This document shows, one piece after another, positions 1-35,845 of a DNA stretch of 38,688 bases. The translations under genes were made by a program, and so were the position numbers. Source of the DNA: Methylococcales bacterium (GTDB taxonomy: Bacteria > Pseudomonadota > Gammaproteobacteria > Methylococcales > Methylomonadaceae); assembly GCA_023134955.1 (NCBI GenBank), contig JAGLUC010000345.1:1-38688 (forward strand), given 5' to 3'. Below the pieces are notes generated by a model that saw nothing but the letters and a program-made list of their open reading frames with translations, had not been told where the DNA came from and did no database searches. Each line of letters starts with the position of its first letter. The stretch's first letter is position 1.

Positions 1-10
1 TAATTTTAAT

Positions 11-3000
11 TTGGCTCAATCTACCTTATCTGTTGATAGCAGTAGTTTTGGTTTTAGCGGTATAGAAAATCTTAATTTACAAGGTGGTGACAGCGGCAAT
101 ATCTTTACAATAGAAGATTGGACTGGGGGCTTTTCGATAACTGGCGGACTGGGAGAGGATTCACTGGTCGGTAGCAGTATTATAGATAACGACTGGGCTA
201 TTGATGGGCAGAATTCTGGGTTTCTAAACGACCAGTCTTTTTTGAGCATTGAGAGTTTATTTGGCGGTGCAGTTAATGATGACACCTTTACCTTTGAACA
301 GGCTGGCACGTTAAGTGGAGTTGTTGAAGGCGGAGATGCAGGCTACGATATTGTTGTTCTTGCCGGTACGTATGGAAATATTGACTACCAAGTTACAGGT
401 GAGCAGTCAGGTATTTTTGACTTAGATGGGGATATTCTCACCTTTGGGGGAATGGAGCCAATTATTGTAAACAGTGCGGGTACTTTTACCATTTCTGGTA
501 CCACGGGTGATGATAATGGTGTTAACTCGATTATCCTTGAAGATGTTAATGACTCAAGTGAGGTCACGATGCAGATATCGGGTCTCGGTGAAACAATTGC
601 ATTTCTTGATAACCCCATAGATAAACTGGTTATTAACGGGCTAGCCGGTAACGATACGGTTATCGTTGATTCAGTTGATTCAGCTTTTAATGCGGCACTT
701 GAAATCACCGCCGAAAGTATTCTTATCGAGGATACTGCAACAATTAATACAACCCACGATATTATTCTGATAGCTCTTGCCGATTCTGATTCGGGTATTC
801 AAACGGCTGAAATATTTATTGATGGTGACATCACTACGACGGGACACCTTAAATTAGCCGCACAAGTTGATAATGTAATTACCACTGCGAGTTTTTCTAG
901 TATATCAGAGATAACAGCATCATCAGCCCAAGCATTAGTGCGAGATGGTGCGTCTCTTGATGTCGGTACGCTGGAAATTACCGCACATACGAATGTTGAT
1001 ATTTCAGCGACACTTACGACTAACTCGCCACTTGCCTTGGTAACGATAGAGAGTACCCAAACAACGTATGCCGGTATTGCGGGTAATGTATCGGTCAAAG
1101 TAGGTTCTGGTTCAATTGGTGGCGTGCTTGGAAACCCAAGTTTATTGATTGAAGCAATTGATAGCTCTGAAATTGAAACTACGATTAACCATACAGCACT
1201 CGGTGCATTGCTGGGCAGTGCTTTAAATACAGGTTTTGACGCTTATATCAGCAGTATTGATATAAGCCGTGATACTCAAGCTTTTCTAGGGGATGGGTCG
1301 GGTACGATTAATAGTGTGCCTGTAGCACCATCAACGGGTTTAGTATGGGTTTATGCAGAAAATAAAGATGGTGCAAATGCCGGTATTGACGGAAAAGTAG
1401 AGTCTTTTCTTTTTGGCATGCATAGCAATACAGCCAGCAAAGACGATGTACTCGCTTTTGTTGATAATGCGCAGATGAACGTTGCTTCTTTGGAATTGAC
1501 GGCTAAAAATACCTCTAGCTACTCAGCAGACTCAAAAGTCTCTAGCAATAATGTTACCGGCCAAACCAAGGCTTATATTGTTGATAGTACAATTTCTGCA
1601 GCGCCTACATCGAATACGGATGGTGTCATTATTCTTGCTTCTGATACTGCATCTTACACGGCATTATCAGATGATTTTCAGGCTGATTTACTTGATTTTT
1701 CAACAATCGAATTTGGTAAAGCATCTGCTATTAACGAAGTAAACAAGCCAACTATGGCTTATATAAGTAATTCAGATGTTGATGTGACGGGCGGTGATGT
1801 CAGTGTAACTGCAATTAATAATGTCCAGCTTAGTGCCATAGCTAAGGCAGTAACAGTCATTGATAACAACGGAATTTTTGATACTTATTCCCTTAGTCTA
1901 GGAGGCACATTTGCAGCTAATGAATTATTCGGCAATGTCGAAGCCTATATTGCCGGTAGTACGATAGATGTTGCTGGTTCTGGTTCAGATGTGCTTATTA
2001 GTTCTACCAATACTACAGCTCTTGATGCCAGAGCGGAGGCGAGTACCAAAGCGACCGGTGGCTCAGGCTCCGCAGTAGGTATAACGGTTGCTTTCAACGC
2101 AATTGGCTGGGATGTAACTAACTTCCTGGGTGCTACGCTTGACACCTTGATTGGTACAGAACTGGCTACAACAGACCAGAGCATGCTCACATTGGCTTCA
2201 ATTAGCAACAGCACTGTTAACGCAGGTGGACAGGTTTCAGTAACAGCACTTTCTGAACAAGGTATTAATTCAACGGTTTCCAATGTGGCTGAATCTGTAG
2301 CTTCGGCACTCTTTGGTGCAAAAGGTATGGCGGTTGCAGGGATTGTTGCGAGTAACAGAGTTTCTAGCGCGGCTCGCGCTTATATAAAAGATAATGATGA
2401 TTCAGACGGAATGCCAACCGAGGTTATCGCAGGGGATCGTATTTCGGTTTCGGCTGAAGACAGTGCAGGTATATACTCAAACAGCAAGTTGGTATCTTCA
2501 TCAATCACCACCAATGACGGTGGTGCAGAGGTATTGCAGGACATAACTAACTTCTTCTTAAATGCGGATCATACTACGGATAATTTAGCTGTTACATTGG
2601 CCTTTGGAGACAGAGTGCGTTTGGCTGCTGACTACGCAGACGGAGGCAACGCAGGCAGTGTTTATGAATACCTCGGTCAAGATGGCTTTGATCCGACCGA
2701 TGCTGACATGAGCGAAACCGACCTAAGTGGCGTGGACTACTCAGACCTGGACTACTGGAAAGAAGTCTCAGAGACCCAGCTGATTCCACAAGGACTTAAT
2801 GTGACTGGCTCAGACTCCGTAGCCGTCGGCGGCATTGTTGTTGTCAATGATGTACGAGCAGGGGTTGAAGCGTATATAGATAATGCGACTGTCACCACCA
2901 GTAATGGCGATATTGCCTTAACTGCATTAGAGAACGCACAAATCAAAGCCACCGCTGACAGTACCGCAGAATCATCAGGCGGCAGTGCTTTTGGCACCGG

Positions 3001-6000
3001 TACATCCATCGCGGTCAATGCAACCATAGCCACCAATCTCGTACAAAGCACAGCCAGTGCACGAATTACCAACAGTATCGTACAAGCACAAGATAACACT
3101 CTTGATGAAGGCTTAGGCAATATCTCAATAGATGCACAGAACACAGCCATCTTAGAAGCCACCACCCTGATTTCAACAACAACTGGCGACACAGCCGTAG
3201 GCGCAGTATTAGCATTTAATACCGTAGGTTGGGAAGCACAAAATGTCCTGTTCAACACACTTGATGCACTGCTAGGAACCCCAATAGGAGTTGAAAATCC
3301 TGCAGCCGTTGAAGCATTAATAAAAGACTCAGACATACAGGCTGATGGCGACCTCACATTAATAGCTCAATCGACAGCAGCAATTACCGCAAAAGTCGGC
3401 AATGAAACCACAGCAGCAGCTTCTGCATTATTTGGCGCATCAGCAACCAGCTTTAGCGGCATTCTGTCAGCAAACCGGGTAAGTAGTGAAGCACAGGCCT
3501 ACATTGATAACACAGGCATCACACCCAATATAGTCGACCCAGATATTGAAATCAGGGGTGGTATTGCCATAAGCGCGAAAGATATGGCAGTCATAGGTTC
3601 ACAAACTCGCCTGCTTTCAACGACCTCATCCTCAAATGACGGAGGTACAGGCCTAGTTAATAGCCTGGCAAAAACCCTGCTAGATGGTTATCAATACACC
3701 ACCAACTCCGGCACTCAAATGCTGGACTTTGGCGACAAAGTTCGACTCACTGATGGTGTGGAATACACCGGTGGCGGAGAACCAGGTGTTGTCTACGAGT
3801 TTATGGGTGTAGATAGCACACAAATAATATTAGGAACAGAAGATTACAGCAACAAAGATTTCTGGAAAAAACTCAATGACGACAACATCATCCCAACCTC
3901 AATCGGTAAGACATTACTGAAAGAAGCGGGTGCAAAACTAGGGGGTGGTGCAGAAAGCATGAGCGGTCTCGTTTCACGTAATGATGTACGTAGCGATGTG
4001 GATGCATACATTGTTGCCGCAGTAGTGGAAGCAGCCGATGGTGATATTGTACTAACCGCATTAGAAGATGCAACCATCATAGCCAAGGACAGCAGTGAGG
4101 TTTCAGCCCTTGATGCGAAAGCAGGCGTAATTGTTAATAACCTCGTTCTCAGTGAAGCCGATGCAGCGATCAGAGACAGCCAAGTCACCGCACTGGATGT
4201 CTCCGGTGGGAATGGTAATATCAGTCTTGATGCTCGCAATACATCAACAATAGAAGCAACCGCACTAGGCTCAGTAAAAGGTAAGGAAGTCATCGGCTTT
4301 ACAGTGGCATTCAACACCATAGGCTGGCAAGCACAAGATTTATTAACACAAACAGTTGATGCCTTAATTGGTGCGCCACACATTGCAGAAGCAAGCGACC
4401 CAGTGGCCTTATCCAATGAAGCAGGTACACAGGATATTGGTTTTCGAGATGTAGTTGAGTTCGTTACTGGCTTTGGTACTGGAGACAACAATGGTGACCG
4501 CTACGAATTTCAAGGAACGGCAGAAGAAGGCGAAGGCTTAAATCTTGCCAATCAAGATTACACAGATACAACAAAATGGCGCAAACTCCTAGCTATTGAT
4601 GTCTTCGGTGGACTGCAACCTGCACGAGGACAAGCGTACACTCAAGACTCTGTCATTGTTGCAGACGGAGACCTGAGCTTAACAGCAATCTCAGCGGCTA
4701 ACTTAACAGCAACGTTGGGCAGCGAATCAAGCGCAATCAAAAAAACCGACTTTGCCATTCGAGCCAAATATGGCACCAGTGGTATGGGTGGCGGTGCATT
4801 ACTGGCAGGAAACAAAGTTAGCAGTGAAGCCAAAGCCTTTATCGACAACACAGGTATCACAACTGCTCCAGGTGTACTAAATATTGATGTGAACGGTGCA
4901 GTCACCATCAGTGCAGATGACACTGCGGGAATCCTGGCAGATATCGACTTAAAAGTAGAGTCATCCACTACAAGTACACTGGATGCGTTGAAAGGCGTAG
5001 CGGGTACGCTGGGTTTAGATGATTATGAATACACCATAGCATCCGGCACCAGAACAGTTGCGCCTGGTTTAGCTGAAGTCATCGCATCAGGGGAAGACCC
5101 TTTTGATCCAGCCAATGGATTTGCAGCACGACAATCAGGAGACCGCGTCTGGGTTTCGCAAGACTACATAGATAACAATGGACTTACCGCCTTATTAACA
5201 CAGGGTGTCTATGAATACACAGGGATAGAAGCAACGCTTGACCTAGGTGATCCAGCAAGTGCTGATTATACCAGTGGTGATTGGCATCGCCTGGCTCAAG
5301 CCGACTACGAAGACATCCTGTTTCCAGAAATTGGCAATGTAACCGACTCGGATTCACGGGCATTTGGTGGCCTGGTTGCAATGAACGATGTGCGCGGTGA
5401 CGTAGAAGCCTACATCACCAACGCAACGGTAGAAGCCGGTTCTATTGCCATGAGTGCAAAAGAAAATGCATTAATATCCTCGACAGCAACCAGCAACGTA
5501 TCCTCTTCAGGCGGCAGTGCATTTGGTACAGGTACCTCGTTAGCAGTAAACGGCCAGATAGTAACAAACCTAGTATTGAGTCATTCAAGAGCGTATATCG
5601 ATGACAGCACAGTTGGCACAACGGGTACGGGTGATATTGCGATAGATGCACAGAACACCTCAAGCATAGATGCAACACTTAACAGCTCAACACAGACTGG
5701 AGATACCGCAGTAGGCATTAGCCTGGCATTCAACTCCATAGGCTGGAAACCACAGAACGTACTGTTCAATGCAGTCGATACACTACTGGGCGACCCACTG
5801 ATCTCAGAAGCCTTTAATGGTGAAGACCCCGCACTAGTTGAATCATATATTCTTAACTCCGACATCAATGCTGGTGGTGATCTATTCATCACAGCGGATA
5901 ACAATACCCAGCTCAATGCCACCGTCAGCAATGCGGCATCATCGGAAGCCTCTGCGCTATTCAATGCAAGCGGAGCAGCGTACGGAGGTATTCTCGCCAG

Positions 6001-9000
6001 CAATAAAGTAAATAGTCAGGCACGTGCTTACATTGACAGAATGGGGGTAGCGACTGTTCATGCAGATGGCAATATCACCATTACAGCCGATGACAATGCC
6101 GGCATCTACTCCAACAGCAAGCTGGTATCCTCATCTATCACCACTAATGATGGTGGTGCGGCAGTTCTGCAGGAAACACTTAATGACTTATTGCCAGCAG
6201 AGTATACGGCAAGAAACACCCCAGAATCCGTCACCCTCGCTTTTGGCGATCGAATCCGGTTAGACGATGACTACGCAGGTGGAGGCAACGCAGGCAGTGT
6301 TTATGAATACCTCGGTCAGGATGGCTTTGATCCGACCGATAATGACACCAGCACTACCGACCTAAGTGGTGTGGACTACTCGGATCTGGACTACTGGAAA
6401 GAAGTCTCAGAGACCCAGCTGATTCCACAAGGACTTAATGTGACTGGCTCAGACTCCGTAGCCGTCGGCGGCATTGTTGTTGTCAATGATGTACGAGCAA
6501 GGGTTGAAGCGTATATAGATAATGCAACTGTCACCACCAGTAATGGCGATATTGCCTTAACTGCATTAGAGAATGCAACGATTATTGCTAATGTGGATAG
6601 TACGGCTTCTTCGTCTGGCGGAAGTGCTTTTGGCACTGGCACTTCGTTAGCAGTGAATGGTTCAATTGCGACAAATGTGATCCAAAGCTCCTCTAAAGCA
6701 TACATCATTGATAGTATGGTTACTGGTGGTGACCTTAGCGATTCGGATGGTAATGCATTTGGCAATATTGATATTAATGCCGCCAATACTTCTTTGCTAG
6801 AGGCTATTAATAAAAGTATGACTAGCAGTGGAGATACCGGTGTTGGTGTTGTCCTTGCTTTTAACTCCATTGGCTGGATGACCAGCAATGTTCTGTTTAA
6901 CAGTATAGATGCATTGTTAGGTGACCCACTAATATCCAGTGCATTTAATGGCGAAAGACCTGCTGAAGTTCAGGCTTTTATTCAAAACTCAACGGTTGAT
7001 GCAGATGGTAGCTTAGGTCTTAATGCCTTATCAAATGCTGTTATTAACTCAGAAATTAGTAATGAAACCACCTCCGCAGCATCTGCTCTTTTTGATGCGA
7101 CAGGTCTGGCAGTTGGTGCGATTTTGAGCAGTAACAAGGTGAGCAGTGAAGCACAGGCTTATATTGGTATTGCTGATCATCGTTCAGATAGTGGAACTTT
7201 GTGGGTAGAGCAAGGAGACCGGGTTAAACATGTCGGTGCAGTGTATGAATATAACGGTACAGAAGGTGCAATTAATCTTGCGGATAGTAGTCAAAATTAT
7301 GTGACTAATACAGCCGACTGGACTTCAGTCAGTGTTAATAATGATATTGATGCTGATGATGGACTTACAATTAATGCGGCTGATAATGCAACGATTCTCG
7401 CCGATAATTCACTCAAAGCATTATCAACAACAACTAATGACGGCGGCACTAGTATTTTGGCGGGGCACATTGAGAGTGCTCTCAATGAATATGGCTTTAC
7501 TACCAATTCGGGAACGCAGGATGTTTCAAATGGAAGTCTTGTTTATCTTGCCTCAGATTACACAGATGTGGGTGGTGCCGCTGCACAAACCGTGTATCGG
7601 TATAAAGGTGCTAGTTTAGAGTTAGATTTAGGCACTCAAAATTACGGAGATAGCAATGGTGATTGGGTTCTAATTGATCCTCTTGATCTTGAGTCATTTA
7701 CGCCACCAGGGGTTAATCTTAACGTCAGTTCTTCTGATTCTACGGCTATTGGTGGTTTAGTTGTACTTAATGATGTTCGTGGTTCAGTTGATGCATATAT
7801 AAATACAGCACAAGTTGATGTATCTACGTTTGTTTCAATTACAGCAACTGAAAATGCAAAAATTGATGCCCTGAATACCAGTGTTGCCAAAGCTGATGGT
7901 GGTAGTGCTTTTGTAGGGGGTAGTACTATTGCAGTTAATGCTGTTATTGCCACTAATTTAGTGCTGAGTGGGGCAAAAGCCTATATTGCTGACAGTAATG
8001 TAAATGCTATTTCGGGCGATGTTCAAGTACAGGCATTCAATACCGCTGAAATCAATGCCGTGATAGATAGCGAAACTACGGTAGAAGGCGGTGGCGATAG
8101 TTTTGCGATTGGTGTCACTCTGGCATTTAATTCCATTGGTATGAATTCACAGAATTTACTATTCAATACCATAGATGCGTTGTTTGGTACGGATATTGCC
8201 AATGAGAATCCTGTACAAGCCAGTGCGAAAATAATTAATTCTAATGTTGTTGCAGGTGGCAGTATTTTAGTTAATGCACGTTCCGAAATGGACATAGATG
8301 CAACCATGACAAATGCGGCTTTGGCAACTTCAGTCAGTTTGGAAGATAGTACTTCGGTGACTGTTGCTCCTATTGTTGCACTTAACCGTGGCAGTAGTGA
8401 GGCTTTGGCCAGTATTGAAAATTCAAATGAAGTAACGGCACAAAATGGCGATATTACTGTATCAGCCCAAGATATATCCGCTATTCATGCAGATGTGTCC
8501 GCTTCTTCAGCATCAATTGCTGTGAGTGCAGGTAAGTCAATTTCTGTTGCAGTTGCTACCTCATTTGCACGTAATCAACTTCGTTCTGTCGTGGATGCAG
8601 CTATTTTAGATTCAGGTTCGACAGCCACACCGGTTTCGGCACTTAATGGCGCAATTATTGTTAGCGCAGAGCGTAATGCCAGCATACATGCATCAAGTGT
8701 TGCCTCAGCATTGTCATTTTCTGCAAGTGGCGGTAGTGGTGTTGGTGTATCTGGAGGCGGGGCTGTAGCTATCAACCGTATTCTGGGAAGAACCGATGCC
8801 AGTGTGGAAAGAAGTGTTCTGATTGCAGATTCGGTAACCATTACGGCACAAAGTTCATCAGATATTGATGCAACTGTAGTAGCAGCTACTCTATCAGGTG
8901 CAATTAGTTTAGATGGTGGTACTGCAGTTGCAGTAGGTATTGCGGTAGCTGATAACTGGATTGGCTGGGATGATACTGCTGCTGCTGAGACATATGCAAG

Positions 9001-12000
9001 TGATCAAGTGCCTACAACGTTGGTAGCGAATGATGTTGTTAAAGTAGTAGAAGGTGGTCGACTAGGGGAGCACTACAAATATATTGGAGCAAACCAAACA
9101 GGTGGTGTTGATCTTTCGATTCAGGATTATGGTAATCCTTCACTATGGGAGCGTGTCGGTTTAAGTCGTGAAGGCTCAGAAACAGCAGCACATATGGATG
9201 ACAGTGCAATACTTAGCAGTATTGATGCAAAAGCTGATTTAACGATAGAAGCCAATGCAGAACAACTGATTATAGCAACCGTTTTTGCAGGGTCAATGGC
9301 TATTGGTGCGGGTAAAAATGGCGTAGGTGTTGCGGCCGGTGGGGTTTTTGCTCGCAACCGTATTGCTTCTGATCCTAGAGCTTATATTAGCGGCGATGAC
9401 AATGACAACGAAATAACGGTAGATAAAGCGACAATAACAGCTTATGACCGTTCAACTATTGATAGTTTTGCCGGTACAGCATCGATAGCAGGAGCTTTTG
9501 GCGGACAAAATGGAATTGCGGTATCAGTCGGTCTGACTATTGCAATGAATGAGATTTCTAATCAGGTGTCAGCTTATGTGTTTGATGCTGATTTGCATGT
9601 TAATGGATCTGATCATCAAGATGGTGTTCAAATTGGCGCATATGCAGGGGCAGCAAGTAACCATACGGTAGTTTCTCCGTCTGTGAATGCCGATGATCTT
9701 GATGATGCGGCTCAACAGGATATGGCTGAAGGCTCTAATGACACAGTTATACTTGATGCGACAGATGCCAGTGGGGATGTCACTATCATCAGTAATTTAC
9801 TGGCGGATCTGAACAGCCAATTAAGTATTGCTGAGCAAATATCAGGCAATATCAGTCTTTCTAAAATTAGCGATGATTTAGGCTGGGTTTTAGTTGATGA
9901 AAAAGGCCGGACTTTTAATCTAAATTTTAATGCATCAAATGATTTAGAGTTTAGTCGTGCATCAATTAATTCCGTTGCCCTTGCGGCATCATTGGCAGCG
10001 TCTTTTGGTGGCAGCTCCTCTGTAGCGGTTAGTGGTGCAGGTGCATACTCAGAAAATATTATCATAACAGCAACCAACGCCTATATTTCAGCAAGTGAAG
10101 TCGATAGTGTGGGTGATATTAGTATTACCGCTAATAATATCAGTTCCATTTCAGCCAATGTTATCGCCGCTTCTATGGCCGTCGGCGTAAGTGGTGGAAC
10201 AGGTGTCGGTGCATCTATAGGTGTTGCAATAGCAAGAAATTTTATCGGCATAGAGCGGGATGGCACAAACAGTGCCGCACTGGTTCAGACCTACACGGCT
10301 GCTTCCAATGTTTTTTCTGATGGCAACTTAACGCTTAATGCTCATTCAGATCAATCCATTCAAGCGGTAACTTTTGCAGGTTCAGTCGCAATAGCGGCTT
10401 CTGGTTCGGGTGCAATTAGTTTCTCCGGTTCTGGTGTCTATGTAGAGAATGTCGTTAATGTTGAGACACGGGCTTATATTGATGGAGACCGTAGTCCTGC
10501 TACTGGTAAAGCAATCAGTGCTGATAATATCACCATTGATGCAACGAATACCTCATCAATTTCTACATTCGCAGGTGCGGCATCAATTGCGGCTTCAGTT
10601 GGTAGTGCTTCTGTCGCTATATCTGTTGGCCTATCATTGGCTCAAAATGATATCGGCGGTGTTATTGAGGCTGCCATTCGTAACGTAGATGCAGGTGTGG
10701 AAGCGACAAATGGTGCAGTCACCATTAATGCAAAAGATGAGGCGGAAATAACAGTCACTTCTGCGGCAGCATCAATAGCTGCAGCGTTTGGTAGTGTAGG
10801 GGTTGCAGTATCAGGCGCAGGTGCTGAGGCAACTAATTATATAAATTCAGATACATCTGCACATATCACTGCATCTTCTGTTGATGCTACAGGTGATGTT
10901 AGTGTGGTCGCAGATGCGACTGGCGTTATTAGGTCGGCAGTAGTTGCCGCTTCTGCTGCGGTTGCTGTTGGTGCTACTGGTGTCGGTGCTTCAGTGGGTG
11001 TTGCGGTTTCACGTAATCTAATTGGCTACAAACAAGGTACGGCAGCGGCAATTTATGATACTTCGGACATAGCGGTTCCCTCTTTAACTAAAAATGTAAC
11101 GACAGTAGAAGTGCTTGAAGGCGCACGAGCAGGTGATGTCTTTAAATATATTGGTGATAGTGTTTCGGATGAAACTTATGACATGCGTAAACAGGACTTT
11201 TCCAATACTGATTTATGGGAGCAGATTAACCTAGAACAAGCGAATAAAGGTTCAATCGCATCAATTTACGACACTTCGGATACAGCTGTACCAGCATTAA
11301 CTAAAAATGTAACGACAGTAGAAGTGCTCGAAGGGGAACGAGCAGGTGATGTCTTTAAATATATTGGTGACAGTGTTGCGGCCGGAAGCTATGACATGGG
11401 TATACAGGACTTTTCCGATATTGATTTATGGGAACAGATTAACGTAGACAAAAATAGCAATAGTATTAAAGCCTTTTTACTTGATAGCTCAATTACTGCG
11501 GGTGGTGCATTGCTGGTTGATGCAAGTTCGACTCAATCAATTGATGCCTTAGCTTTTGCTGGTTCTGTGGCGGTAGCTGCTGGTTCGGTCGGTGTGGCGG
11601 TGTCAGGATCGGGTGTGGGGGTTGAAAACCGCATAGCAACAGATATTCATGCGTTTATTAGTGGTTCAGGTGTCAGTGGAATTAATGCTCAGTACATAAC
11701 TGTTAATGCTGATGATGACTCCAGCATTGATGCTTTCGGTGGAGCAGTTGGGGTATCAGCAGCATTCGGTGCTGTTGGTGTCGGTGTGGCCTTAGGGGTA
11801 TCAACCGTTATCAACGAAATAGCAAATGATGTTACGGCATTTATTAGCAATGCTGTAGATATAACAACAGATGGTGTGAACGGCTTAGGGCAGGGTGTTA
11901 CTGTTAGTGCATCATCCCCAGATCAAGAAATTCCTGACCTTGCCTTATCAAGTACTGGTTATACTGCTGCGGAATTAGATGATGCTGCTGGCGTTGAAAC

Positions 12001-15000
12001 AGATGATGATAACCAAACGGATACCGCTGCAGAAATAAATGATAGAAATTTTGATGCAGCAACATTAAATGCATTAAAAACAGCACTTATTAATACCGGT
12101 GCGGAAGTAGTAGGGCAGTTACGCATTACGGTAGTAACTGAAAGTAAAGCATGGACTGTTGTTGATGAGAGGGGTTCTAGCTTTTCAATCAATTTAAATG
12201 GCTCTTCTTTTGTTGCTTCTCGTGCATCAATTAATGCCGTGGTCGGAGCCGCTGCGCTTAGTGTGGGTGTGGGTGCTTTTGGTGGTGCTGTCAGTGGCGC
12301 GGGTGCAGTTGCACTTAACGCTATTCAATCCACTATAAAAGCTTATATTGATAGCTCAGATATTGATGCTAATGGTGGTGGAGATATTCTAGTTGATGCC
12401 AGAAGTGACAGTCAGATTAATGCTCTGGTTTTGTCCGTATCACTTGCTGTTGGCGTTGGTGCTACGGGGGTTGGTGCTGCACTGGGTGTCTCAGTTGCAC
12501 GTAACTTCATCGGTTTTGATTTAGCAGGTAATTCAGTTGCTAACTCAGGTGAGACTACGGCTTATACACTTAACTCCACTATTGATGCTCAAGGTGATTT
12601 GCTTATTCAGGCAGAATCCAGTCAAGAAATTCGCGCCTTAGTGATGGCGGGTTCTGCAGCCGTAGCAGGTGGTGCTGTTGGTGTGGCCGTGTCTGGCTCT
12701 GGCGTTTATGCAGAAAATAAAATTGGTGCAAATACCGAAGCCTATATAGAAGGTGATGGTGTAGGTATTGTGGCAGATAACATTACCGTATCGGCTAAAG
12801 ATACTTCGGAAATTGATGCCATTGCGGCGGCGACCTCTATTGCTGCAGCGGTAGGTAGTGTGGGCGTGGGTGTTAGCTTAGGCCTATCGCTTGCGGATAA
12901 TGCAATTTCAAGTACAGTCAATGCCAAAATTGACAATGCAGGTGATACTGTTCACGCCAGAGCAGGAAATATTAATGTAACTGCAGATGACATGTCATCT
13001 ATTCGAGCAACATCTGCAGCAGCAACACTTTCAGTAACAGCGGGGCTTACTAGCGTTGCCGTTAGCGGGGCAGGTGCTTGGGCAAAGAACACAATAGAAA
13101 CAGCGACTAGTGCAATAATTGAAGACTCTACTATTAATGCTGATGGTGGCAGTGTAGTGGTAGTTGCGAATGGTTCGGCAAGCATTGAAGCACAAATTAT
13201 TTCAGCCGCACTTTCGTTAGGTGTTGGCGGTGTGGGTGTTGGCGTTTCAGTGGGGGCTTCCTTAGCTGAAAATACTATTGGTGGCAATGCAACCAATGGT
13301 GTATTTGCCCATGTTTTACGTTCAACGGTGACTGCTGACCAAGATGTAACGGTCAATGCCGACATGAGCTCTACTATTGATGCGACAGTTGCGGCAATAT
13401 CGGTAGCTGTGGCTGGCGGTGTTGTAGGAGCTGCGGGTGCAGGCTCAGGTGCTGATACTAATAACACTCTGGATTATGGTGTAAAAGCCACCATTGAAGA
13501 TGCTTCAGTTACGGTAGCTAATATAGTTAATGTTCTGGTTACAGATGATAGCGAAATTGATAGTTTTGTGGGCGCAGCCTCAGTGGCTGGCTCAGCAGGT
13601 CTGGTTGGTGGATCAATATCTATTGCGGTTTCACTGTCGGATAATATTGTAACAAACGAAATTGAGGCATTTATTGACAATAGTAGTGTTACAGCCAAGA
13701 CTGTTAATGTGACGGCGGATGATGATAGCGAGGTTGATGCGCATGCTGAAGCGGCTGCAGTTTCTACGAGTATATCTTTAGGCTTTAGTGTATCAGGGAG
13801 CGGAGCAGAAACTCGGATAAGCGGAAATAATACGGTCAAAAGTTACGTCACTGGAACTGGCGGTAACGATGTATTTAATCTCACCCATGATTTAAATGTT
13901 AAAGCAACTTCTACCCCCGATTACTTTGGTGATGTGGGTGTTAGTTCTGTTGCGATTGGTCTGGCTTCATTTGCTGCAAACGGTGGCGTGGTTAATGTCT
14001 CTGTTAAACCCGATATTAGTGCTTATGTAGAAAATGTGACAGTCAATGCGGATGAAATTGATGTTGATGCCATAGCCCAAATTCGAGCTAAGGGCACTGC
14101 TTGGGGTATGAGTATCTCAACAGGTCTCTCTATGGGAGTAAGCCAAGTCAATGTAACTACAGATGCCGATGTTGATGCTTATGTTGGCGGTAATACCGGT
14201 ATTTTTAACATTAGAGCGATGCAGGTCAATGCGACAGCAGCAGATAATCCTAATGTTGGTGGTATGACTGGTCAAGCTAAAGCGACTTCATCAGCTGGTG
14301 GCTTATTGCTGGGTGCAAGCTCTACCGTTGCTAATACTTATAACTATAATACGATTACGGCAAGAGTTTTGGCCGGAGCAGATGTAAATGCCAGCGGCAC
14401 AGTGACTGTTACAGCCAACAATGAAATTAAACAAGAAGCCGATGCCAACTCTGCGGCAGGTGGTTTGATAGGTGTGGGCTCTTCTTCTTCCAAAGCGACT
14501 TCAAATACAGTTACCAGAGCTGAGGTTGAATCTGGTGTTAGTCTTAATGCTAATAGACTTAATATTTCCGCATTGGGTGAGTCTGAAAATTTTGCCGATA
14601 CCACTGCGGGTTCAGGTGGCGTGGTAAGTGGGGCAGCCGCAGCACCAGAAACTAATACGACTTCCATCGTTGAGGCACTGATTGGTGCGAGTGCAGATAT
14701 TAATCTGAGCGGAGTCAATGGAAAACTGGCAATAACTGCTAGCCACATTGCGCTTCCTAATACAAAAGTAAAAACAGATAGTTATGGCTTGATTGCTGGC
14801 TCAGGAGCTGTTGCAGACAATGCTATTACCAGCGATGTTCTCATTAGAATCGGTAATAATGCGGATGTTAGTGCGCAGAATATTAATTTAAATGCAACGA
14901 ATAAACTGGATAAGCTTGATGTTTCTGGTACAAATATTGATGGTGACGCTGGGGGGCTGGCGAGTGGTGCTAGTGCCAATAGTGATACTGTTGTTGATTT

Positions 15001-21000: not shown

Positions 21001-24000
21001 TGATGTTATTACCGTGAATTCAGGCGTTACCGTCGATGCAGGCGGCAGTATTTTCTTTAATGCTGGTGACCACATTGTTGTACAGAGTGGTGCGACAATT
21101 GAGGCGAATAATGATATTACATTTAATACCGATGTAGCTAATCTGGATGCTGGCGGTGGTGATATTACCATTACAGGATTAGTTGATGCCATTGCTGGCA
21201 CAGTTACCTTGGCATCAAACAGTGATAACGATAGCTTTGTAGTCGATGGTGCTATTAAGGCTGGTGATCAGGTGCTGGTAACAATGGGCAATGGTGCGGA
21301 TACTTTTATAGTTACAGGTAGCATATTGTCAAATGCGCTACTTTCAGTAAATACCGGTGCTGGGAATGATGTTTTTACAGTTATCTCGGGTGGCTTACTG
21401 CAATCTAATAGTGGCAATGTCGAAATTAATACTGAAGCCGGGGAAGATACCCTGCTCGTTGCCGAAACAGGAACGCTAGCAGGAACGAGTATTGCTATTG
21501 CCAGTGGCGATAGTAATGACCAAATTACTATCGAAGGTATGCTAGATGCTGGAACCAGCACTATATTGATTGATGCGGGAGCGGGTGAGGATGTTGTTTT
21601 ATTAGATACGCCTATTTTGATTGGTCAAACCACTGTATTCGGTGGTGCTGACGATGATTTGATTACAGTAAACAGATTACCTACACAGGGTGCAACGGAT
21701 ACCTTAATGCTAGATGGTGGTGAAGGAAATGATGATCATATTGTCAACCTGACTGACCCAGCAACAGTTGCAGGGCTAGGTACTGAATATAGAATAGATG
21801 TCTTTGATACAGGGATAGGCGACACCGATACGCTTACCGTTAATGGCACAGCATTAGCAGATAACATTCTGATGCGTGCGAGTGAAAAACAGAAAGTAGA
21901 TGGTGGAGTAGCTTTTGTTGCTGCGTTACATAACGATGATCCAACCATTGCCGTTGAGCGGATTAATTACGACAAGGGGCTCGAAGAACTAATCGTTGAA
22001 ACTGGAGATGGTGATGATAATGTTAGTCTTGATGATAACTGGGTCACTACAACGGTTCGGGGTGGTGCAGGTCAGGATAATTTTCAGATTGGACAAATTT
22101 TTAAAACAGCACGTGATGCTGCAAATGCCAATATTGCATTAGAAGATGAGTTTGAGACAGTTTTATCAACGCGTGGGCATTTGAGTAACGGTGTTAGTTT
22201 TGAGACAACAATTGAAGGCGGTGATAATGAGGATACTTTCGTGGTATTCCGAAACTCTGCCAGACTGAATTTATTTGGTGATGACGGTGATGACTTGTTT
22301 GTTATTCGCTCATTTGCAGAAGAAGGTTCTAGTGATAGCGACATTGACCTTGGAGAAGGTGCAGATACCGTTGAATATGTTTCTAATGCGGCTGTAAATG
22401 TTATCGGTGGAAATGGTAATGATACTTTGCAGTTTATCGGTACTGAGTTTGGTGATGACTTTCTGATTACCAACAATAGTATCAGAGGTGCTGGGCGAAC
22501 TATTACTTACCAAGAAATAGAGAATCTTGAGATTGATGGTGCAGAAGGCGATGATAATTTCTTTGTTTTCTCAACCAATGAAAACGTTATAACCAAATTG
22601 TTTGGCGGCCTTGGTAATGACAGCTTCAGTATCGGAGGTGACAGTGGATCAGTTGTTGTCGCTGATAATGCGATAGAGGCGGAACAAGAAGGCCCACATA
22701 ATGTCGCGGGAATATTGGGTGCTTTAGAAATTTATGGTTTTTCTGGTAATGGTACAGCTGGTGGCTTAGGCGACCCAGTGATGCTACCTGGCGAAACTAA
22801 TGTTCTACCATCAGATGGTACAGTGCTTGGCTACCAAGTGGGTGATAACACTGACGATACCATGACTGTTTTAACAAGTGCATTGCAAACGGTAATTAGC
22901 AATGATGAGGACCTAGATGATTTACAAAGTTTAATAGGGCAAACGCTGGAAATCAGTAGTGGTGCTGGAATATCCCGTTTCTGGGCGATTACAGCAGTTG
23001 TTGATAATAATGGCACTAATACAACACTGAGTTTGCAAAATCCAACACTACCCGCAGAAGAGTGGGAAGACCCTACCATAGGTAGTGAATATGCCATTAC
23101 CCATTTATCAGCAAATTTCTTTGTTGATGAATCCTTGGCTTTAGATAAAGTGACTGTTTTTAATGATGGCAGCAGCTTGAATTCGAGTGGACTACTGACA
23201 GCAAATACACTCACTGGACTTGATATGGTCGCTGTGGGCATTAGCTATGGTGATTTTGAAGCCTTTGAGTTGCTATTAGGCACAGGCAATGATGATTTTA
23301 CGGTGGATTCTACTGCAGATGGTGTGATTACGGCGATACATGGTGGTGCGGGTGATGATCTGATTACCATTAATAGTCGAGGTGGTTTAGATAGTCGTGG
23401 ACTGGATGGTTCATTGGTCGTTTTTGGCGATACCACTCAAGATGGTAGCCGATATATAGACAGTAACACTGTGCTTTTACCTGGTTTTGCATACGGTTTT
23501 GATACGGTGGGAAACGACACTATTGATGCTTCATCTGCTGTCAAAATGGTTTCAATCTATGGCGGCGGCGGTAACGATATTATTATCGGTAGTCAGGCTG
23601 GAGATCATCTTGCAGGTGGTTCTGGTGATGATGTAATTACTGGCTTGGATGGTTTAGATCATATCTATGGTGATTCAGGTATTAATCTTGAGCTTGATAC
23701 GCGAGTACTCACGATAGTGACAGTGGACACGAGTTCGGAAGATGCCAGAGATGTATTATTAGCAGGTAGCGACATAATAGATGCTGGCGAGGGTGATGAT
23801 ATTATTTTTGGTGACCATGGGATTATCGACCAAACTGTGAATACAGTTAGAATCCTTAGCACATCAAATATAGAGCGGATTAGCACCACTGAAGAGACAG
23901 TTGGTTTAGATGATATTATTATCGGTGGTTTGGGTAATGATCGGATTCTAGCGGGTAATGCCGAAGATCAAGTTACTGATTTAATGGATAATAATATTAT

Positions 24001-27000
24001 CTTGGGCGATCATGGTTATATTGACTATGTATCAATAGATGGTGATCTGAGTGATATTGATGTAATAGAAAGTACTTCTACCACCGTAGGCGGCGGCAGT
24101 GATGGCATCCGCAGTGGTTTTGGCAACGACATTATTCTAGGCGGACGCTTTGGCGACCAAATCAACAGCCTGGGTGGTGACAACCTCATCCTTGGTGATA
24201 GCGGTAGTATTACCGCCGCCAATACTGGTACAGCACAACTGGCAGGACAATCCATCACTCTAGGGTTAATTACCAGCACCGAATTTGATGACGGCGGTGC
24301 CGACACCATCACCACCGGTGCAGGTCAAGACATCGTATTGGGCGGAGATGAAGGCGATATTATAGCTACAGGTGATGGCAGTGATATTGTACACGGTGAT
24401 AACGCGCGTCTGGATTACACCAGTGGTAGTTCAATTACACTTGATTTAATTGAAACGCTTGCTAATGATATAGGCGGTGAGGACATCATTCGAGGTGAAG
24501 GTGCCGATGATATATTAATTGGTGGTACTTTAGCTGACCGCATTGATGGTGGTAGCGAAGAAGATCTGATTTTTGGCGATAATGTTAATCTGGATCGTAG
24601 CGCTACTTATGGTAATTTTACTAATCTACGATTCCAGACATTGACGGGCTCCGAAATTTACGGCAGTGGTTTAAATGTGAATGGTTTTGTTGAAGGAGAA
24701 GTGTTGATTAGTAATACTGCACAACTTGATCCACAGGGCATGTCTGCATTTTGGTCTGATTTCCAGATTACATTGCTTGACCATGATGATGCTAGTAATA
24801 CAAACAAGTTCGGTGACGATTATATTGCCGGTGGCGCTAATGATGACCAAATATTTGGTCAGTTGGGTAATGATGTAATTCAGGGTGATGGCACTATTGA
24901 CCTGAATGTATCAGCGGCTCGGTTAGCAGCAGATGGAACGCTTAGTCTGAGTGCCTCGGTGGAAGATTTTGATCATTTTGATGAGTCAAACTTGGTCTTC
25001 TCTGTTGAAGGTAATGATGGTGATGACTATATCGAAGGTAATGGCGGTGATGATGTTATTTTTGGTAACCTTGGTCAAGATGACATTATAGGTGGCAGCT
25101 CGACGTTATTTAGCCTTGATAGCCAAGGTCACCGTCCAGATGGAGCCGATTTGCTTTTTGGTGGTGCAGGTGTTGATGTTATTCGAAATAATTTGGGTGA
25201 TATTAGCCATGCTGTCGATTCCGACATGATTCTGGGTGATAATGGCAATATCTATCGACTAGTCACTGGCGGCACGAGTAATGCTTATCTTGGTTTTACT
25301 TATGATAACTATGGTGGAGAAAAAATCATTGTGCGTGCGGCAGAACTTATTGACTACACAGCAGGTGAAGCTCACCTGGATGTCAATGGACTGAGTTCGG
25401 ATATCGGTGCTGCAGATGAGATTCATGGTGAGTCGGGCGATGATTTTATTTATGGCATGGTCGGTAATGATGTTTTATTCGGTGACGGCCAGGATGATGA
25501 CCTAATCGGTGGCTATGGCCATGACTGGATATCAGGTGGTACTGGCGATGATGGCATACTTGGTGATGATGGTTTGATTTATACCAGTAGAAATGGTGTA
25601 ACAGGAGAGTCTTTATATGGTATAGGCGCTGTTGTAGAACAAACAATCAGTACACCAGGAGATTTTCAGCAAGCTACTATTAATGTTTTAGGCGAGCTTA
25701 AAAAGACTGTTAATTTAACACCTTTTAATGTTGACCTAAATACAGCACTTCAAGACCACTTATATGATGCTCAGTTTGCTGATGACATAATCTATGGCGG
25801 CTGGGGAAATGATTTTTTACATGGTGGTTCTGGTGATGACGCTATTTCCGGAGCAGAAGCATTAAATAGTTTCTACTCTGTACCGAGTAATTTAGGTGAT
25901 GAACTAGGCTATAACAGTTTAATAGTGGGGGAATTTGTCGCTTATGACGAATTTAACCCATTACTTAAAATTAATAACTTCTTCCTTAATTTTAATGCTG
26001 GTGAAGGTGAGGTAGTGCTTGGGGAAGCAGTCCTAACTGATGGTAATGACCGGATATTCGGTGACCTGGGTAACGACTGGCTAGTCGGGGGAACAGGAAG
26101 AGATCATCTATATGGAGGTTATGGTGATGACCTACTCAATGCCGATGATAATCTTGACAGCAATGGCGGTCTCAATGATGTTCCAGATGGCCCTCAAGCC
26201 TCTTACGAGGATTTGGCATTTGGTGGCGCTGGTCGCGATATATTAATAGCCAATACAGGTGGCGACCGCTTGATAGATTGGGCAGGGGAATTTAACAGCT
26301 TTGTTGTACCTTTTGCACCCTTTGGTTTAGGGACAGTCAGCCGGGCTTTGCAACCACAAATTGCAGACTACCTCTATGATTTATCAGCAAGTGATGGTGC
26401 GGATTCGACTCGTGCTGCTGATACTGGTACAAATATTGCCAGAAATGGGGAGCCAGATGGTGAGCTAGGTCTCGTTACACAGCAAGATACTGATTGGCAA
26501 GATCAGACTGGAGCACCTGCTGATCCACAACCTGGTAATGTGGCAGGCGGTGCGCGTGACGTATTGCGAAGTGCTACTTCAAATCTATTGGCACAAGAAG
26601 CGGCCATAATAATATCTGCAGAAGAGTTAAGTCAGATACAATTAACAGAGATTGTTAATACGGCTAAATCATCTTGGCAAGAATCAAGATTATTAAATCA
26701 AGCATCACTTTCCAAATTAGATAAAGTGGAGATAAGAATTGCTGATCTAAATGGTTTGAAACTAGGTCATACAGCGGGTAATAGCATCTATATAGATATT
26801 AATGCAGCGGGTCACGGCTGGTTTATAGATACCACGCCAGATATTAACGAGGAATACCAACGCAATGGCGAAGAATATAGCCTGACAGCACTAAATAATA
26901 CTGCGGCTAGTGATAATATGGATTTACTCACAGTAGTTAAACATGAGTTAGGACATATTTTGGGCTATGCACATGATAGTAATGGTGGTTTAATGGAAGA

Positions 27001-27418
27001 TACCTTACAGGTCGGTGAGCGAAAACTAATAGTACCTGAGGCGCTAAACTTCACAAGTAATGTAAAATCGGATAGTGCTACAACGCTTTCAAAAATAGTG
27101 GAAAAAGCAACATTTAGTGCTAAAAAATTACTTGGCATTAGCACACAACAAGGAAATATTGATTTTCAATATTTTGATGAGCTATTTGGTGTCTTTAATA
27201 ATCAGGAGGTCACTATAGAACCTGAGGATAGCAAAGAAGACTTTTTGATCTTTAGTAATGATAAAAACCAGGATGGTAAAGAAAACCATGCAACCCAGTA
27301 TCAACTAAGAAAAGGGCATGAATCTAATGGCTCAGATCAACGAGCAACGGAAAATAAAGCTGAAGGAAGAGAAACGGAACTCACTGTTTTAATTGACTGG
27401 AGTGACGGAGAAGACTAG
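11..27418 (+). CDS. Giant secreted-type repeat protein (at least 9135 aa, probably 5'-partial): beta-solenoid-like repeats, RTX-type GGxGxD Ca-binding block, C-terminal HExxHxxGxxH zincin-like module
   Basis: A 27.4 kb stop-free frame in AT-rich DNA cannot arise by chance. Codons 2-10 (aat ttt aat) are also open, and the first residues ([17 protein letters not shown]) already sit inside a repeat that recurs near aa 7500 ([18 protein letters not shown]), so the TTG at 11 is probably not the true start. There are dozens of GGxGxD nonapeptide-like motifs between roughly 21590 and 26290. [11 protein letters not shown] is at 26942..26974. The stop codon TAG is at 27416..27418. Confidence 0.9.
   Translation: [9135 protein letters not shown]
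2630..2940 (+). repeat. Copy A of a ~310 bp near-identical dispersed direct repeat inside the giant ORF
   Basis: It aligns base-for-base with 6269..6579 at a constant offset of 3639 bp (1213 codons). I count about 16 mismatches, 7 of them in a patch at 2701..2720. A perfect 114 bp run covers 2747..2860. Confidence 0.85.
6269..6579 (+). repeat. Copy B of the ~310 bp near-identical dispersed direct repeat inside the giant ORF
   Basis: See copy A. Immediately outside the tract, identity falls to the level of the other paralogous modules; for example 2590..2629 versus 6229..6268 differ heavily. Confidence 0.85.
11051..11476 (+). repeat. In-frame tandem duplication, 2 x 213 bp (71 codons), inside the giant ORF
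   Basis: Unit 1 (11051..11263) and unit 2 (11264..11476) encode [35 protein letters not shown]....YDM..QDFS..DLWEQIN twice. The first ~180 bp of each unit are roughly 85-90% identical, with perfect runs such as ttaactaaaaatgtaacgacagtagaagtgct. Confidence 0.85.
21590..26290 (+). repeat. RTX-type (hemolysin-type calcium-binding, GGxGxD) nonapeptide repeat-coding block of the giant ORF, interrupted by non-RTX inserts
   Basis: Examples are [40 protein letters not shown] (about 23561..23680), [49 protein letters not shown] (about 25429..25575), and [20 protein letters not shown] (ending about 26280). Looser G.G.D.(F/L).(V/I) units run from about 21000. Boundaries are approximate. Confidence 0.8.
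26942..26974 (+). other. Zincin metalloprotease signature [11 protein letters not shown] (HExxHxxGxxH) in the C-terminal module of the giant protein
   Basis: The in-frame codons cat gag tta gga cat att ttg ggc tat gca cat were read directly. The next residue is D, and a Met (GGLMED) follows 7 residues after the third His, a candidate Met-turn. Confidence 0.7.
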
Positions 27419-27497
27419 AGCTTTTTCAGCTAAAAAATGACCTGCTCTGAGGAGGGCTAATGAATTTAACTTTATTAATAATAATGAGAAAAATAAA

Positions 27498-28283: not shown

Positions 28284-28649
28284 ACTAGCAAAGCCTTCCT
28301 TCTATACTCTTTACGTTTAAGAATATCCCATTCTAGTATGTAGATTATTGTGATGAGCTAGGTGTAAAGCAGCAGGAATAGTAATCTATTTCAATGCTTT
28401 ACTTGGCAACTGCTCCTCGGTAATTGCTCTTGCATTATTCTGCTACGCACCATCCATGGCATTAAACAACGCTCATCGCGATAAGATGCGTGCTAGAGTG
28501 GGGTATTTTTGAGCGTGAAGAGTTATATGTATCAACTTTGTGAAATTGTTCTATAGATATTAACAAGCTTGATACTCTGCATTCGCTCAAATACCACTTG
28601 TCTGGTAGTCTATAGCCTCTTATCGTGATTTTATTAATAATCAATTTAC
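28284..28649 (+). promoter_or_regulatory. 366 bp AT-rich intergenic region, probable promoter/regulatory region of the four-gene operon
   Basis: This is the only sizeable non-coding gap between the giant ORF and 35845. A candidate sigma70-like pair is TTGTCT (28598..28603), a 17 nt spacer, then TATCGT (28621..28626). A hairpin GTAAAGCA(23 nt)TGCTTTAC sits at 28364..28402 with no T-tract. All of this is motif-by-eye only. Confidence 0.3.
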
Positions 28650-30803: not shown

Positions 30804-30818
30804 CCTAGGCAACAAGTT

Positions 30819-32966: not shown

Positions 32967-32992
32967 ATTAAAACGATAGTTATGGATTTTTA

Positions 32993-34981: not shown

Positions 34982-34990
34982 GAAATTAGG

Positions 34991-35845
34991 ATGTGTCGAA
35001 TAATAATAAAAAAATCTGTTATCAGCCTATTGCTGGTGCTTTCTAATACAGTATTTGCTGGCAATGGGAAGGTCTTAGATTGTGTGCTGGAGCCGTCAAT
35101 GGTTGTTGAGCTGAGCAGTCAAGTTCGTGGTGTAATTGAGAATATTTATGTTGAACGTACTGATGTTGTTAAAAATGGGCAGCTAGTTGCTAATTTAATG
35201 TCGGGAGTGGAGAAGGTCAGTGTTCAATTGGCTATGGATAGATCGAAAATGGTTGTAGATATAAAATCTAGAAAAGCTGAACAAAAATTTAGAAAGCATA
35301 CCTTCGAGCAGGTAAAAGAGCTTTACAGGAAAAAGCTTGCCTCACAGCGTGAATATGAAGACGCTAAAACCTCAAGTATTGTTGCAGACATTGAACTGGA
35401 AAAAGCTATAGAACTAAAGTACCTGGCAGGTATGGAGTTGAAACGTACTCAAGAGATACTTAAACTTCGTTCTATGCACAGCATGATTGATGGCGTAGTA
35501 GTAGACGTGATGAAGTCACCAGGTGAATTTGTTGAGGAACAACCAGTCATGAAAATCGCTCAAATTGATCCCCTTTTTGTTGAAGTAATCGTACCTGAAA
35601 CATTAATGGGCAGGGTTAAGGTGGGAAAACAATTAAAGGTTAATATTGAAATACCAATAGCAGCTAGCCATTTGGCAACAGTGAGTGCAGTCGATCAAAT
35701 TATTGATGCTACAAGTGGTACCTTTGGGGTACGGCTGATACTACCTAATCCAGATAATAAAATTCATGCGGGTCAACGTTGCCAAGTTGTTTTGGTTGAT
35801 GAACCCCTGAAACTCAACTTAAATAAATATAAAAATAAAAGGTAA
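34991..35845 (+). CDS. HlyD/RND-type periplasmic adaptor (MFP) with cleavable Sec signal peptide
   Basis: The N-terminus is MCRIIIKKSVISLLLVLSNTVFA|GN, with a positive n-region, a hydrophobic core and an AxA-like site but no lipobox. The rest has lipoyl-like halves (VKNGQLVANL ... SMIDGVVVDV), a coiled-coil hairpin, and a barrel segment PLFVEVIVPE...VKVGKQLKV. The start lies 9 bp after the SecA-like stop, with AGGAAATTAGG just upstream of the ATG. Confidence 0.8.
   Translation: MCRIIIKKSVISLLLVLSNTVFAGNGKVLDCVLEPSMVVELSSQVRGVIENIYVERTDVVKNGQLVANLMSGVEKVSVQLAMDRSKMVVDIKSRKAEQKFRKHTFEQVKELYRKKLASQREYEDAKTSSIVADIELEKAIELKYLAGMELKRTQEILKLRSMHSMIDGVVVDVMKSPGEFVEEQPVMKIAQIDPLFVEVIVPETLMGRVKVGKQLKVNIEIPIAASHLATVSAVDQIIDATSGTFGVRLILPNPDNKIHAGQRCQVVLVDEPLKLNLNKYKNKR

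Follow-up and report, generated by a model that had tools for sequence, protein, structure and literature searches.

Gene Content of the Locus

A Methylococcales bacterium stretch of 38,688 nucleotides (contig JAGLUC010000345.1; hereafter the window, meaning the whole DNA analyzed, itself part of a 53,188-bp metagenome scaffold) carries six consecutive genes coding for a giant cysteine-free protein, a SapC family protein, and a four-gene operon. The operon comprises a PilZ-GAF sensor fused to a membrane fusion protein (MFP), an M50 metalloprotease fused to a second MFP, a SecA paralogue, and a short MFP, with HlyD_3/HlyD_D23 domains in three of these proteins (Table 1). Earlier inspection of the letters alone (the original prediction) had taken the block for a possible cargo-plus-machine locus, with the operon serving the export, processing, or retention of the giant. 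The evidence base throughout, comparative genomics together with structure prediction, favors a cargo-plus-machine locus with a probability of about 0.6, the operon being read as a leader-dependent, SecA-like-powered apparatus of MFP/TolC type for giants with an N-terminal LEPR-XLL domain.

Table 1. Genes, domains, and motifs of the block in window coordinates (aa, amino acids; ORF, open reading frame; TM, transmembrane; RRE, RiPP recognition element; RiPP, ribosomally synthesized and post-translationally modified peptide).
Feature	Position	Strand	Evidence
Giant cargo gene, residues 148-9285	2..27418	+	ORF map; open at left edge
RTX-type Ca-binding nonapeptide motifs (GGxGxD) of giant	21716..26248	+	Pfam PF00353, 6 stretches, E 1.9e-29; motif positions
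Metzincin (M10/matrixin-like) domain near giant C-terminus	26615..27016	+	PF00413, E 1.7e-5, 25.2 bits vs. cut-off 24
LIDWSDGED C-terminal tail of giant	27389..27415	+	Motif comparison
sapC, 261 aa	27498-28283	+	ORF map; PF07277
Non-coding gap ahead of operon, 366 bp	28284..28649	.	ORF, Rfam, terminator searches
PilZ-GAF-MFP sensor-adaptor, 717 aa	28650-30803	+	ORF map, domain searches
PilZ domain of 717-aa protein	28680-28961	+	PF07238, E 1.3e-9
GAF domain of 717-aa protein	29487-29888	+	Domain search
Single TM segment of 717-aa protein	29988-30044	+	TM prediction
Periplasmic HlyD/MFP adaptor of 717-aa protein	30099-30722	+	Domain search
M50-MFP, 715 aa	30819-32966	+	ORF map, domain searches
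PqqD/RRE-like cytoplasmic domain of M50-MFP	30843-31118	+	Model, family PqqD matches
Polytopic M50 metalloprotease	31266-32153	+	HELGH 31446-31460; NPLLRFDG 31734-31757
MexA/MacA-like periplasmic adaptor with alpha-hairpin, M50-MFP	32154-32963	+	Modelled adaptor, structure match
SecA paralogue, 662 aa	32993-34981	+	ORF map, domain searches
Short MFP, 284 aa, final gene of block	34991-35845	+	ORF map, domain searches

Conservation of the Operon and Its Association With Giant Proteins

A species scan with one genome each revealed the M50-HlyD gene in at least 527 genomes, the best 80 of which were extracted with flanks of up to 10 kb per side (loci L001-L080). The encoded M50-MFP has thousands of homologues with a length near-constant at 715 aa, and its RRE-M50 half alone matched 3,249 clusters at 50% identity (E ≤ 1e-30), nearly all of the best 150 being ~715 aa long. 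The four-gene core was syntenic in these 80 species-level genomes from at least eight phyla, spanning Gamma-, Beta-, and Alphaproteobacteria, Desulfobacterota, Myxococcota, Nitrospirota, Planctomycetota, Omnitrophota, Methylomirabilota, and others. The gene order GAF-MFP, M50-MFP, SecA-like, and short MFP was conserved nearly everywhere, including a SecA-like gene next after M50-MFP in 64 of the 67 loci having room for one.

Phylogenomic co-occurrence of giant and operon had been proposed in the original prediction as a test of their link, and its outcome was positive. Of the 34 loci for which 5 kb or more could be seen to either side, 27 had a Cys-poor giant or LEPR-XLL ORF adjoining the operon, or 28 when L047, with its less basic leader, is counted. 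The adjacent Cys-poor ORFs are rich in G, D, T, S, N, A, and V and exceed 1,000 aa, most being cut by the flank limit. According to the locus the giant is placed directly upstream, directly downstream, or divergent of the operon, such that proximity has been kept while the gene order was shuffled. Operons regularly lacking a giant, or lying beside small precursor peptides only, were not the pattern encountered. The cross-phylum co-occurrence thus supports the operon as a dedicated apparatus for the giant, its use for export rather than processing or retention being what we infer below.

No ABC (ATP-binding cassette), LapD, or LapG gene was linked to the giant or the operon, contrary to what the analogy to LapA-type loci had led one to look for. 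ABC ATPase motifs were identified in the flanks of 2 of 96 loci, both small, on the opposite strand, and not HlyB-like. In 11 of the 80 loci, genes for TolC-type outer membrane efflux proteins (OEP; PF02321) are embedded in the operon or adjoin it (e.g., L004 16370-17689 and L025 15029-16450). A gene for a DUF3467 protein (PF11950) of ~110 aa with the motif WDDSxMxSxYANVxNVxSTREE lies directly upstream of the GAF-MFP gene in 29 of the 80 (e.g., L040 7682-8050 and L028 4108-4431), and a profile search of the PDB with DUF3467, for which a SecB-like chaperone role is conceivable, gave no meaningful match.

Several loci depart from the common layout. Sulfuritalea-type loci carry, in order, the giant, short MFP, TolC, GAF-MFP, M50-MFP, and SecA-like genes. 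A variant operon in L050, L054, L057, and L079 encodes a SecA-like protein 27-32% identical to that of the window and has the short MFP gene inverted. No SecA-like gene follows M50-MFP in L033 (Ca. Omnitrophota), L044, and L076; in L033 the gene directly after M50-MFP encodes a giant that has a LEPR-like start and exceeds 3,149 aa. A fusion of motor and cargo is possible in L033, since SecA-like domains have been reported embedded in Omnitrophota giants, where scaffold and wing are missing from them, as from the SecA paralogue of the window (10.1101/2023.11.21.568195).

The Giant Protein and Its Predicted Leader

The giant gene is complete on the scaffold (gene call of 9,285 aa), and the window opens 440 nt past its start, so that the first 147 residues are missing. 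The predicted absence of cysteine was confirmed, with none in the 9,138 visible residues, while the five neighboring proteins plus that of the inositol monophosphatase (IMPase) family gene contain 31 in 2,893 residues, a rate at which ~98 would be expected in the giant. The protein is strongly acidic and rich in A, G, S, T, V, and D, and no Pfam family matched its first 4,600 residues. Its designation as an RTX-type protein is also justified, though for the C-terminal part only, the repeats being limited to the last ~1,900 residues with the densest block at residues ~8337-8741 (window numbering). Past the last RTX motif follow ~400 residues including the metzincin-like domain, the HELGHILGYAH of which is encoded at 26942-26974, and in 14 related loci the giants have a homologous domain close to their C-terminus. 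Some related giants have ~1 kb of extra sequence between the metzincin domain and a conserved 900-aa module. RTX repeats are missing in several operon-adjacent cargo proteins (e.g., L007, L016, and L019). As a whole, the giant probably forms a fibre that is secreted or displayed on the cell surface.

Over its last 1,200 aa, the window giant shares 38-55% identity over ~900 aa with operon-adjacent giants of Alpha-, Beta-, and Gammaproteobacteria, including Bradyrhizobium, Mesorhizobium, Jannaschia, and Marinobacterium, in which the giant is located upstream of the operon. The extreme C-terminus carries a hydrophobic-(D/N/E)-W motif, which 8 of 26 upstream giants (L005, L021, L034, L040, L049, L060, L062, and L075) likewise have within their final 45 residues, against a background of 0.063 per 60 aa. 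The conserved core of DUF3467 opens with WDDS, resembling this motif. Comparison with L082, one of the closest relatives, gave ~42% identity for the C-terminal region of the giant (L082 472-5736 vs. window 23800-27418) and 69-81% for the operon proteins (~80% except the short MFP, 69%). Judged by these identities, evolution or recombination is much faster in the cargo than in the machine.

When the 500 leftmost visible residues of the giant were used for a protein search, one 46%-identical fragment was returned and not the 9,285-aa protein itself. The closest homologue of its N-terminal part opens MPSRRKNQQRSAKTKRRQIELKQRRTKRLLFESLETRMLLASDL and has the LEPR-XLL motif. A first metagenome scan found no N-terminal orthologues; a second scan, using an alignment, recovered orthologous contigs. 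These relatives, with the same gene order and an 80%-identical operon, encode giants of 10,525 aa with the N-terminus MSFPF...KKRAVAPIQTKMQFEPLEPRILLSADLSYG, and the first residues of the window align at their position ~146, in agreement with the 147 residues missing from the window. Among the operon-neighboring giants, every visible N-terminus (27 examples including the orthologues) has a stretch rich in K/R and after it the consensus lFExLEPRlLlSADl, and the NCBIfam model NF012209 ("LEPR-XLL domain-containing protein") scored above its cut-off in all three neighbors evaluated. The 9,285 aa of the window giant also fit the LEPR-XLL size class (~8,000 aa). The analogy to LapA-type adhesins was not sustained for the cargo, which by the N-termini of its orthologues would be a LEPR-XLL-type giant with an N-terminal leader instead. 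A second motif, M(S/A)(F/Y)PF, stands at the very start of gammaproteobacterial LEPR-XLL giants (L004, L086-L089, and L098), ~45-60 residues ahead of LEPR.

Components of the Putative Apparatus

The M50-MFP combines three parts with about seven TM segments. In the model of residues 9-100 (predicted local distance difference test [pLDDT] 75-88), three strands precede three helices, which is the order of a PqqD-type RRE, and PF05402 (PqqD) matches 7 of 14 relatives, some database entries being named accordingly. In the metalloprotease part, H210, E211, and H214 of the HExxH motif and D312 of NPLLRFDGY were invariant in 14 homologues, so the protease is probably active, and all 14 family members match PF02163 at E < 0.05. 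The C-terminal half, modelled as an adaptor, matches MexA/MacA/AcrA (E 1e-12). Residues 18-405 align to the daptide leader-peptidase model NF041824 (E 4.6e-43) at 147.8 bits compared with a cut-off of 300, and a second RiPP leader-peptidase comparison (YydH/LiaK-type) reached 35.9 bits compared with a cut-off of 225.

The SecA paralogue contains SecA_DEAD (3.9e-99), PPXD (6.9e-30), and P-loop_SecA (6.1e-52) matches in the arrangement NBD1-PPXD-NBD2, and its Walker A (GEGKT), DEAD, GRGTD, and GRxGRQG motifs are intact. It aligns to SecA structures up to residue ~609-615 of a 781-aa SecA2 and breaks off where the scaffold helix begins, without the wing domain, two-helix finger, and C-terminal tail. 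Its scores remain below all NCBIfam SecA/SecA2 cut-offs (e.g., 607.8 vs. 800). The short MFP has an N-terminal signal or anchor and a HlyD domain, and is of the RND_mfp type (TIGR01730, 110.4 bits vs. cut-off 94.9).

The original prediction had also assigned the PilZ/GAF sensor a role analogous to the cyclic di-GMP (c-di-GMP) control of LapA-type adhesins. The canonical PilZ motifs RNEYR and DKSEGG (RxxxR and (D/N)xSxxG) are indeed present in residues 13-46 of the 717-aa protein, and gating by c-di-GMP would be consistent with them in the clade of the window. As PilZ is confined to that clade (the window, L001, L082-84, and L097), with 70 of 72 orthologues lacking it as ~620-aa GAF-TM-MFP proteins, such control is not general to the system and this part of the idea does not extend beyond the clade. 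Genes for GGDEF-EAL proteins and two-component systems lie near some loci (L019 14565-15725, L047 17840-20869, and L007 4937-6890), which suggests second-messenger control even where PilZ is missing.

Limits of the Block and Non-coding Regions

The ORF map agrees with the earlier description of six genes all on the plus strand, separated by gaps of 79, 366, 15, 26, and 9 bp. The 79-bp spacing of sapC from the giant ORF without an intrinsic terminator was likewise borne out, no terminator-like site being detected in the 79-bp or the 366-bp gap. The block ends where it had been placed: 351 bp of non-coding DNA follow position 35845 and lead to the IMPase family gene (+), rpe (-), and a phosphomannomutase-type (PGM/PMM) gene, i.e., housekeeping genes. 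In the gaps no Rfam match (regulatory RNA or riboswitch) was found, and the 366-bp gap contains no small precursor or accessory ORF; this gap is possibly a promoter or regulatory region. In the closest relatives L082 and L083 a gene for a CMAS-type S-adenosylmethionine (SAM) methyltransferase (6789-7709) occupies the corresponding place between sapC and the PilZ gene. At the other end, the short MFP gene of Methylicorpusculum oleiharenae directly precedes a reverse transcriptase of a group II intron (L097 18680-20008), its right-hand block boundary being the same as that of the window. PADLOC gave no match, and the reading as an anti-phage defence system was rejected.

A Candidate Export Route for LEPR-XLL Giants

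The conserved gene set, the intact catalytic motifs, the order-independent linkage to LEPR-XLL giants, the lack of a linked ABC exporter, and the TolC genes at some loci together point to an envelope-spanning apparatus. In the route that would follow, the RRE-like cytoplasmic domain of the M50-MFP would bind the basic FExLEPRxLLSAD leader, and the SecA-like motor, which has the preprotein clamp and no SecY-docking parts, would thread the chain from N- to C-terminus, possibly during translation. The M50 site would cut off the leader, while the three kinds of MFP could form a hetero-oligomeric duct across the periplasm, leading to a channel of TolC type with its gene elsewhere in the genome, and the RTX modules would fold with calcium outside the cell. 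GAF, joined by PilZ in the clade of the window, would gate the apparatus from the cytoplasm. An N-terminal signal combined with a SecA-type motor would allow for export during translation, which would be physically attractive for chains of 9,000-36,000 residues. Taken in full, i.e., as a new Gram-negative secretion system in which an RRE reads the leader, an M50 protease removes it, and a SecYEG-independent SecA paralogue pushes the chain N-first and possibly co-translationally through a heteromeric MFP-TolC duct, with SapC and DUF3467 as accessory factors, the proposal is tentative and its chances are put slightly short of even.

Several observations weigh against the export reading. The LEPR-XLL leader of the window giant is a prediction from its orthologues, as its own N-terminus lies unread to the left of the window, and neither TolC nor DUF3467 is encoded in the window. 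No giant was seen within 5-10 kb at 6-7 of the 34 well-flanked loci. The M50-MFP of the window scores 24.6 with Pfam Peptidase_M50, below the gathering score of 27.2, and has no PqqD match itself. No inner-membrane channel was recognisable besides the M50 domain, which was poorly modelled (pLDDT <50, residues 182-324). The AlphaFold model of SapC (pLDDT 52) is too poor to interpret, and one of the three close SapC homologues sampled for context is alone among metabolic genes. RTX repeats together with a lack of cysteine are, moreover, the classical marks of substrates with a C-terminal signal for the type I secretion system (T1SS), and a T1SS encoded elsewhere could export the giant.

These last features lead to a different division of labor, in which a T1SS of ABC-MFP-TolC type encoded elsewhere would export the giant RTX C-terminus first, and the operon would only process, retain, or release it as a functional analogue of LapD/LapG, the M50 protease clipping a LEPR-XLL anchor under GAF/PilZ control. 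The acidic composition of the giant, like that of T1SS substrates, the union of protease and cytoplasmic sensor domains in one complex, and the scarcity of TolC, which most loci lack, all agree with such a scheme, as does the want of an obvious channel. It nevertheless leaves unexplained why a SecA-type motor with a preprotein clamp accompanies the M50-MFP in so nearly all loci, and why three adaptors of TolC-docking type are encoded together, with TolC genes inside 11 loci. Furthermore, 94 of the 96 loci are without a linked ABC exporter, and several cargoes are devoid of RTX repeats. A purely processing or retaining operon is therefore considered unlikely, and export by the operon itself is preferred.

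Recurrence of SapC

SapC matches PF07277 over its full length (E 1.1e-73) and has no TM segment, and no relative was found in the PDB by sequence or profile search. If export by the operon holds, it would be a recurrent, soluble accessory factor of the system. That it is instead an unrelated neighbor, the SapC family being present in other contexts too, is improbable. The isolated homologue mentioned above would fit an unrelated neighbor, as would the detection of SapC homologues inside or beside the operon in just 11 of the 80 loci. However, these homologues keep 45-61% identity to the window copy across proteobacterial classes, more than the core proteins do, and stand at four different positions, namely in the M50-MFP/SecA-like interval, in the GAF-MFP/M50-MFP interval, past the short MFP, and upstream.

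The other sampled homologues lie at giant loci. In Methylicorpusculum oleiharenae a 9,770-aa giant is followed by a 225-aa ORF, SapC, a 717-aa PilZ-GAF-MFP, a 715-aa M50-MFP, a 665-aa SecA-like protein, and a 276-aa MFP, which is the gene order of the window save for the 225-aa ORF, missing in the window. In Kistimonas asteriae, SapC is encoded directly upstream of an 8,529-aa LEPR-XLL giant starting MAYPF...RRKKPVRRK...FESLEPRLLFSADP. Upstream of this pair (L098 5880-9933) are an OEP gene, two ORFs of 268 and 297 aa that match no Pfam family, and the gene of a radical-SAM enzyme, which possibly constitute a modification module. An adjacency of SapC to LEPR-XLL giants, which also speaks against an unrelated neighbor, is reported in a 2026 preprint for Chlorochromatium, where the giants Cag_663 and Cag_665 have N-terminal LEPRxLL domains with sapC and tolC flanking (10.64898/2026.03.19.712371). 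Both lack known signals and are nonetheless reported from the partner cell, i.e., as exported, and the route proposed for them consists of SapC, TolC, and HlyD, the M50-MFP/SecA-like operon being unmentioned (10.64898/2026.03.19.712371).

Comparison With Known Systems

The locus shares features with several described systems and qualified as none of T1SS, Lap, sapCDEF, SecA2/SecY2, or RiPP cluster, the defining parts (e.g., an ABC transporter) not being present. As in the T1SS of giant RTX adhesins (LapA/LapBCE with LapD/LapG, SiiE, and MpIBP), a giant acidic Cys-free RTX cargo is encoded beside the apparatus, the HlyD-type MFPs have a TolC-contacting hairpin, and TolC genes occur at some related loci; a cytoplasmic second-messenger sensor, here in the clade of the window, is a further likeness to the Lap type. 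In contrast, no window protein contains an ABC domain, a LapG protease, or LapD GGDEF-EAL receptor domains, the window likewise has no outer membrane factor (OMF) gene, and a SecA paralogue serves as the putative motor. Three distinct MFPs are encoded, one fused to an M50 protease, and the leader predicted for the cargo is N-terminal LEPR-XLL, whereas Lap cargo has a C-terminal signal and an N-terminal retention module.

The sapCDEF locus of Campylobacter fetus similarly has a SapC family gene adjoining a secretion apparatus and a cargo with a non-Sec signal, but the window has no sapDEF (ABC, MFP, and OMF) set and its cargo is not the S-layer protein SapA. In its cargo the locus resembles the LEPR-XLL giants (NF012209, "LEPR-8K"; Chlorochromatium Cag_663/Cag_665), with which the window and its orthologues share the size class, the basic stretch with LEPRxLLSAD in the orthologues, an adjacent sapC, and sometimes tolC. 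Accessory SecA2 systems also dedicate a SecA motor with PPXD to special cargo; unlike these, the SecA paralogue is a free-standing 662-aa protein of a Gram-negative bacterium, has no SecY2 or Asp partners, and shares its operon with genes for MFPs and an M50 protease. The recognition and removal of RiPP leaders (by a PqqD-type RRE and by daptide and YydH/LiaK M50 peptidases) offers a parallel in the RRE-like domain ahead of an intramembrane M50 HExxH protease and in the conserved N-terminal leader of the likely substrate, and differs in that the substrate here is a megadalton protein and the protease is fused to a periplasmic adaptor and scores far under the family cut-offs.

An operon for RiPP or small-peptide maturation and export, or for a regulated efflux pump, lying beside the giant by chance is very improbable: in spite of the likeness of the M50-MFP to such leader peptidases and of the adaptors to those of RND/MacA-type (RND, resistance-nodulation-division) efflux, the peptidase scores are low, the window has no small precursor ORF or modification enzymes, no RND, ABC, or major facilitator superfamily (MFS) pump gene is present, and the adjacency to giants recurs across phyla beyond chance.

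The openly searchable full-text literature (subscription-only papers lying outside it) contained no description of an M50-MFP/SecA-like/MFP operon or of its link to LEPR-XLL giants. Together with the departure from all of the known systems above, this leads us to regard the gene combination, as read from sequences and models, as categorically new, while the LEPR-XLL annotation model was already known and the adjacency of sapC and tolC had been noted once.

Implications for the Export of Giant Bacterial Proteins

How bacterial proteins of ~10,000-37,000 residues without known signals are exported is a question raised explicitly for the giants of the Chlorochromatium symbiosis and of Omnitrophota. 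The locus offers a concrete candidate machine with a signal (LEPR-XLL), a motor, a protease, and a duct, and the system occurs across hundreds of species, cultured methanotrophs, rhizobia, and marine bacteria among them. If the proposal is true, it would explain how proteins of 9,000-36,000 residues exit from the cell and would assign SapC, DUF3467, and the LEPR-XLL domain a function each. It would also carry leader recognition by an RRE beyond peptides, to proteins of megadalton size, and add a new energising principle for tripartite envelope systems, in which a SecA-type motor replaces the ABC, RND, or MFS transporter.

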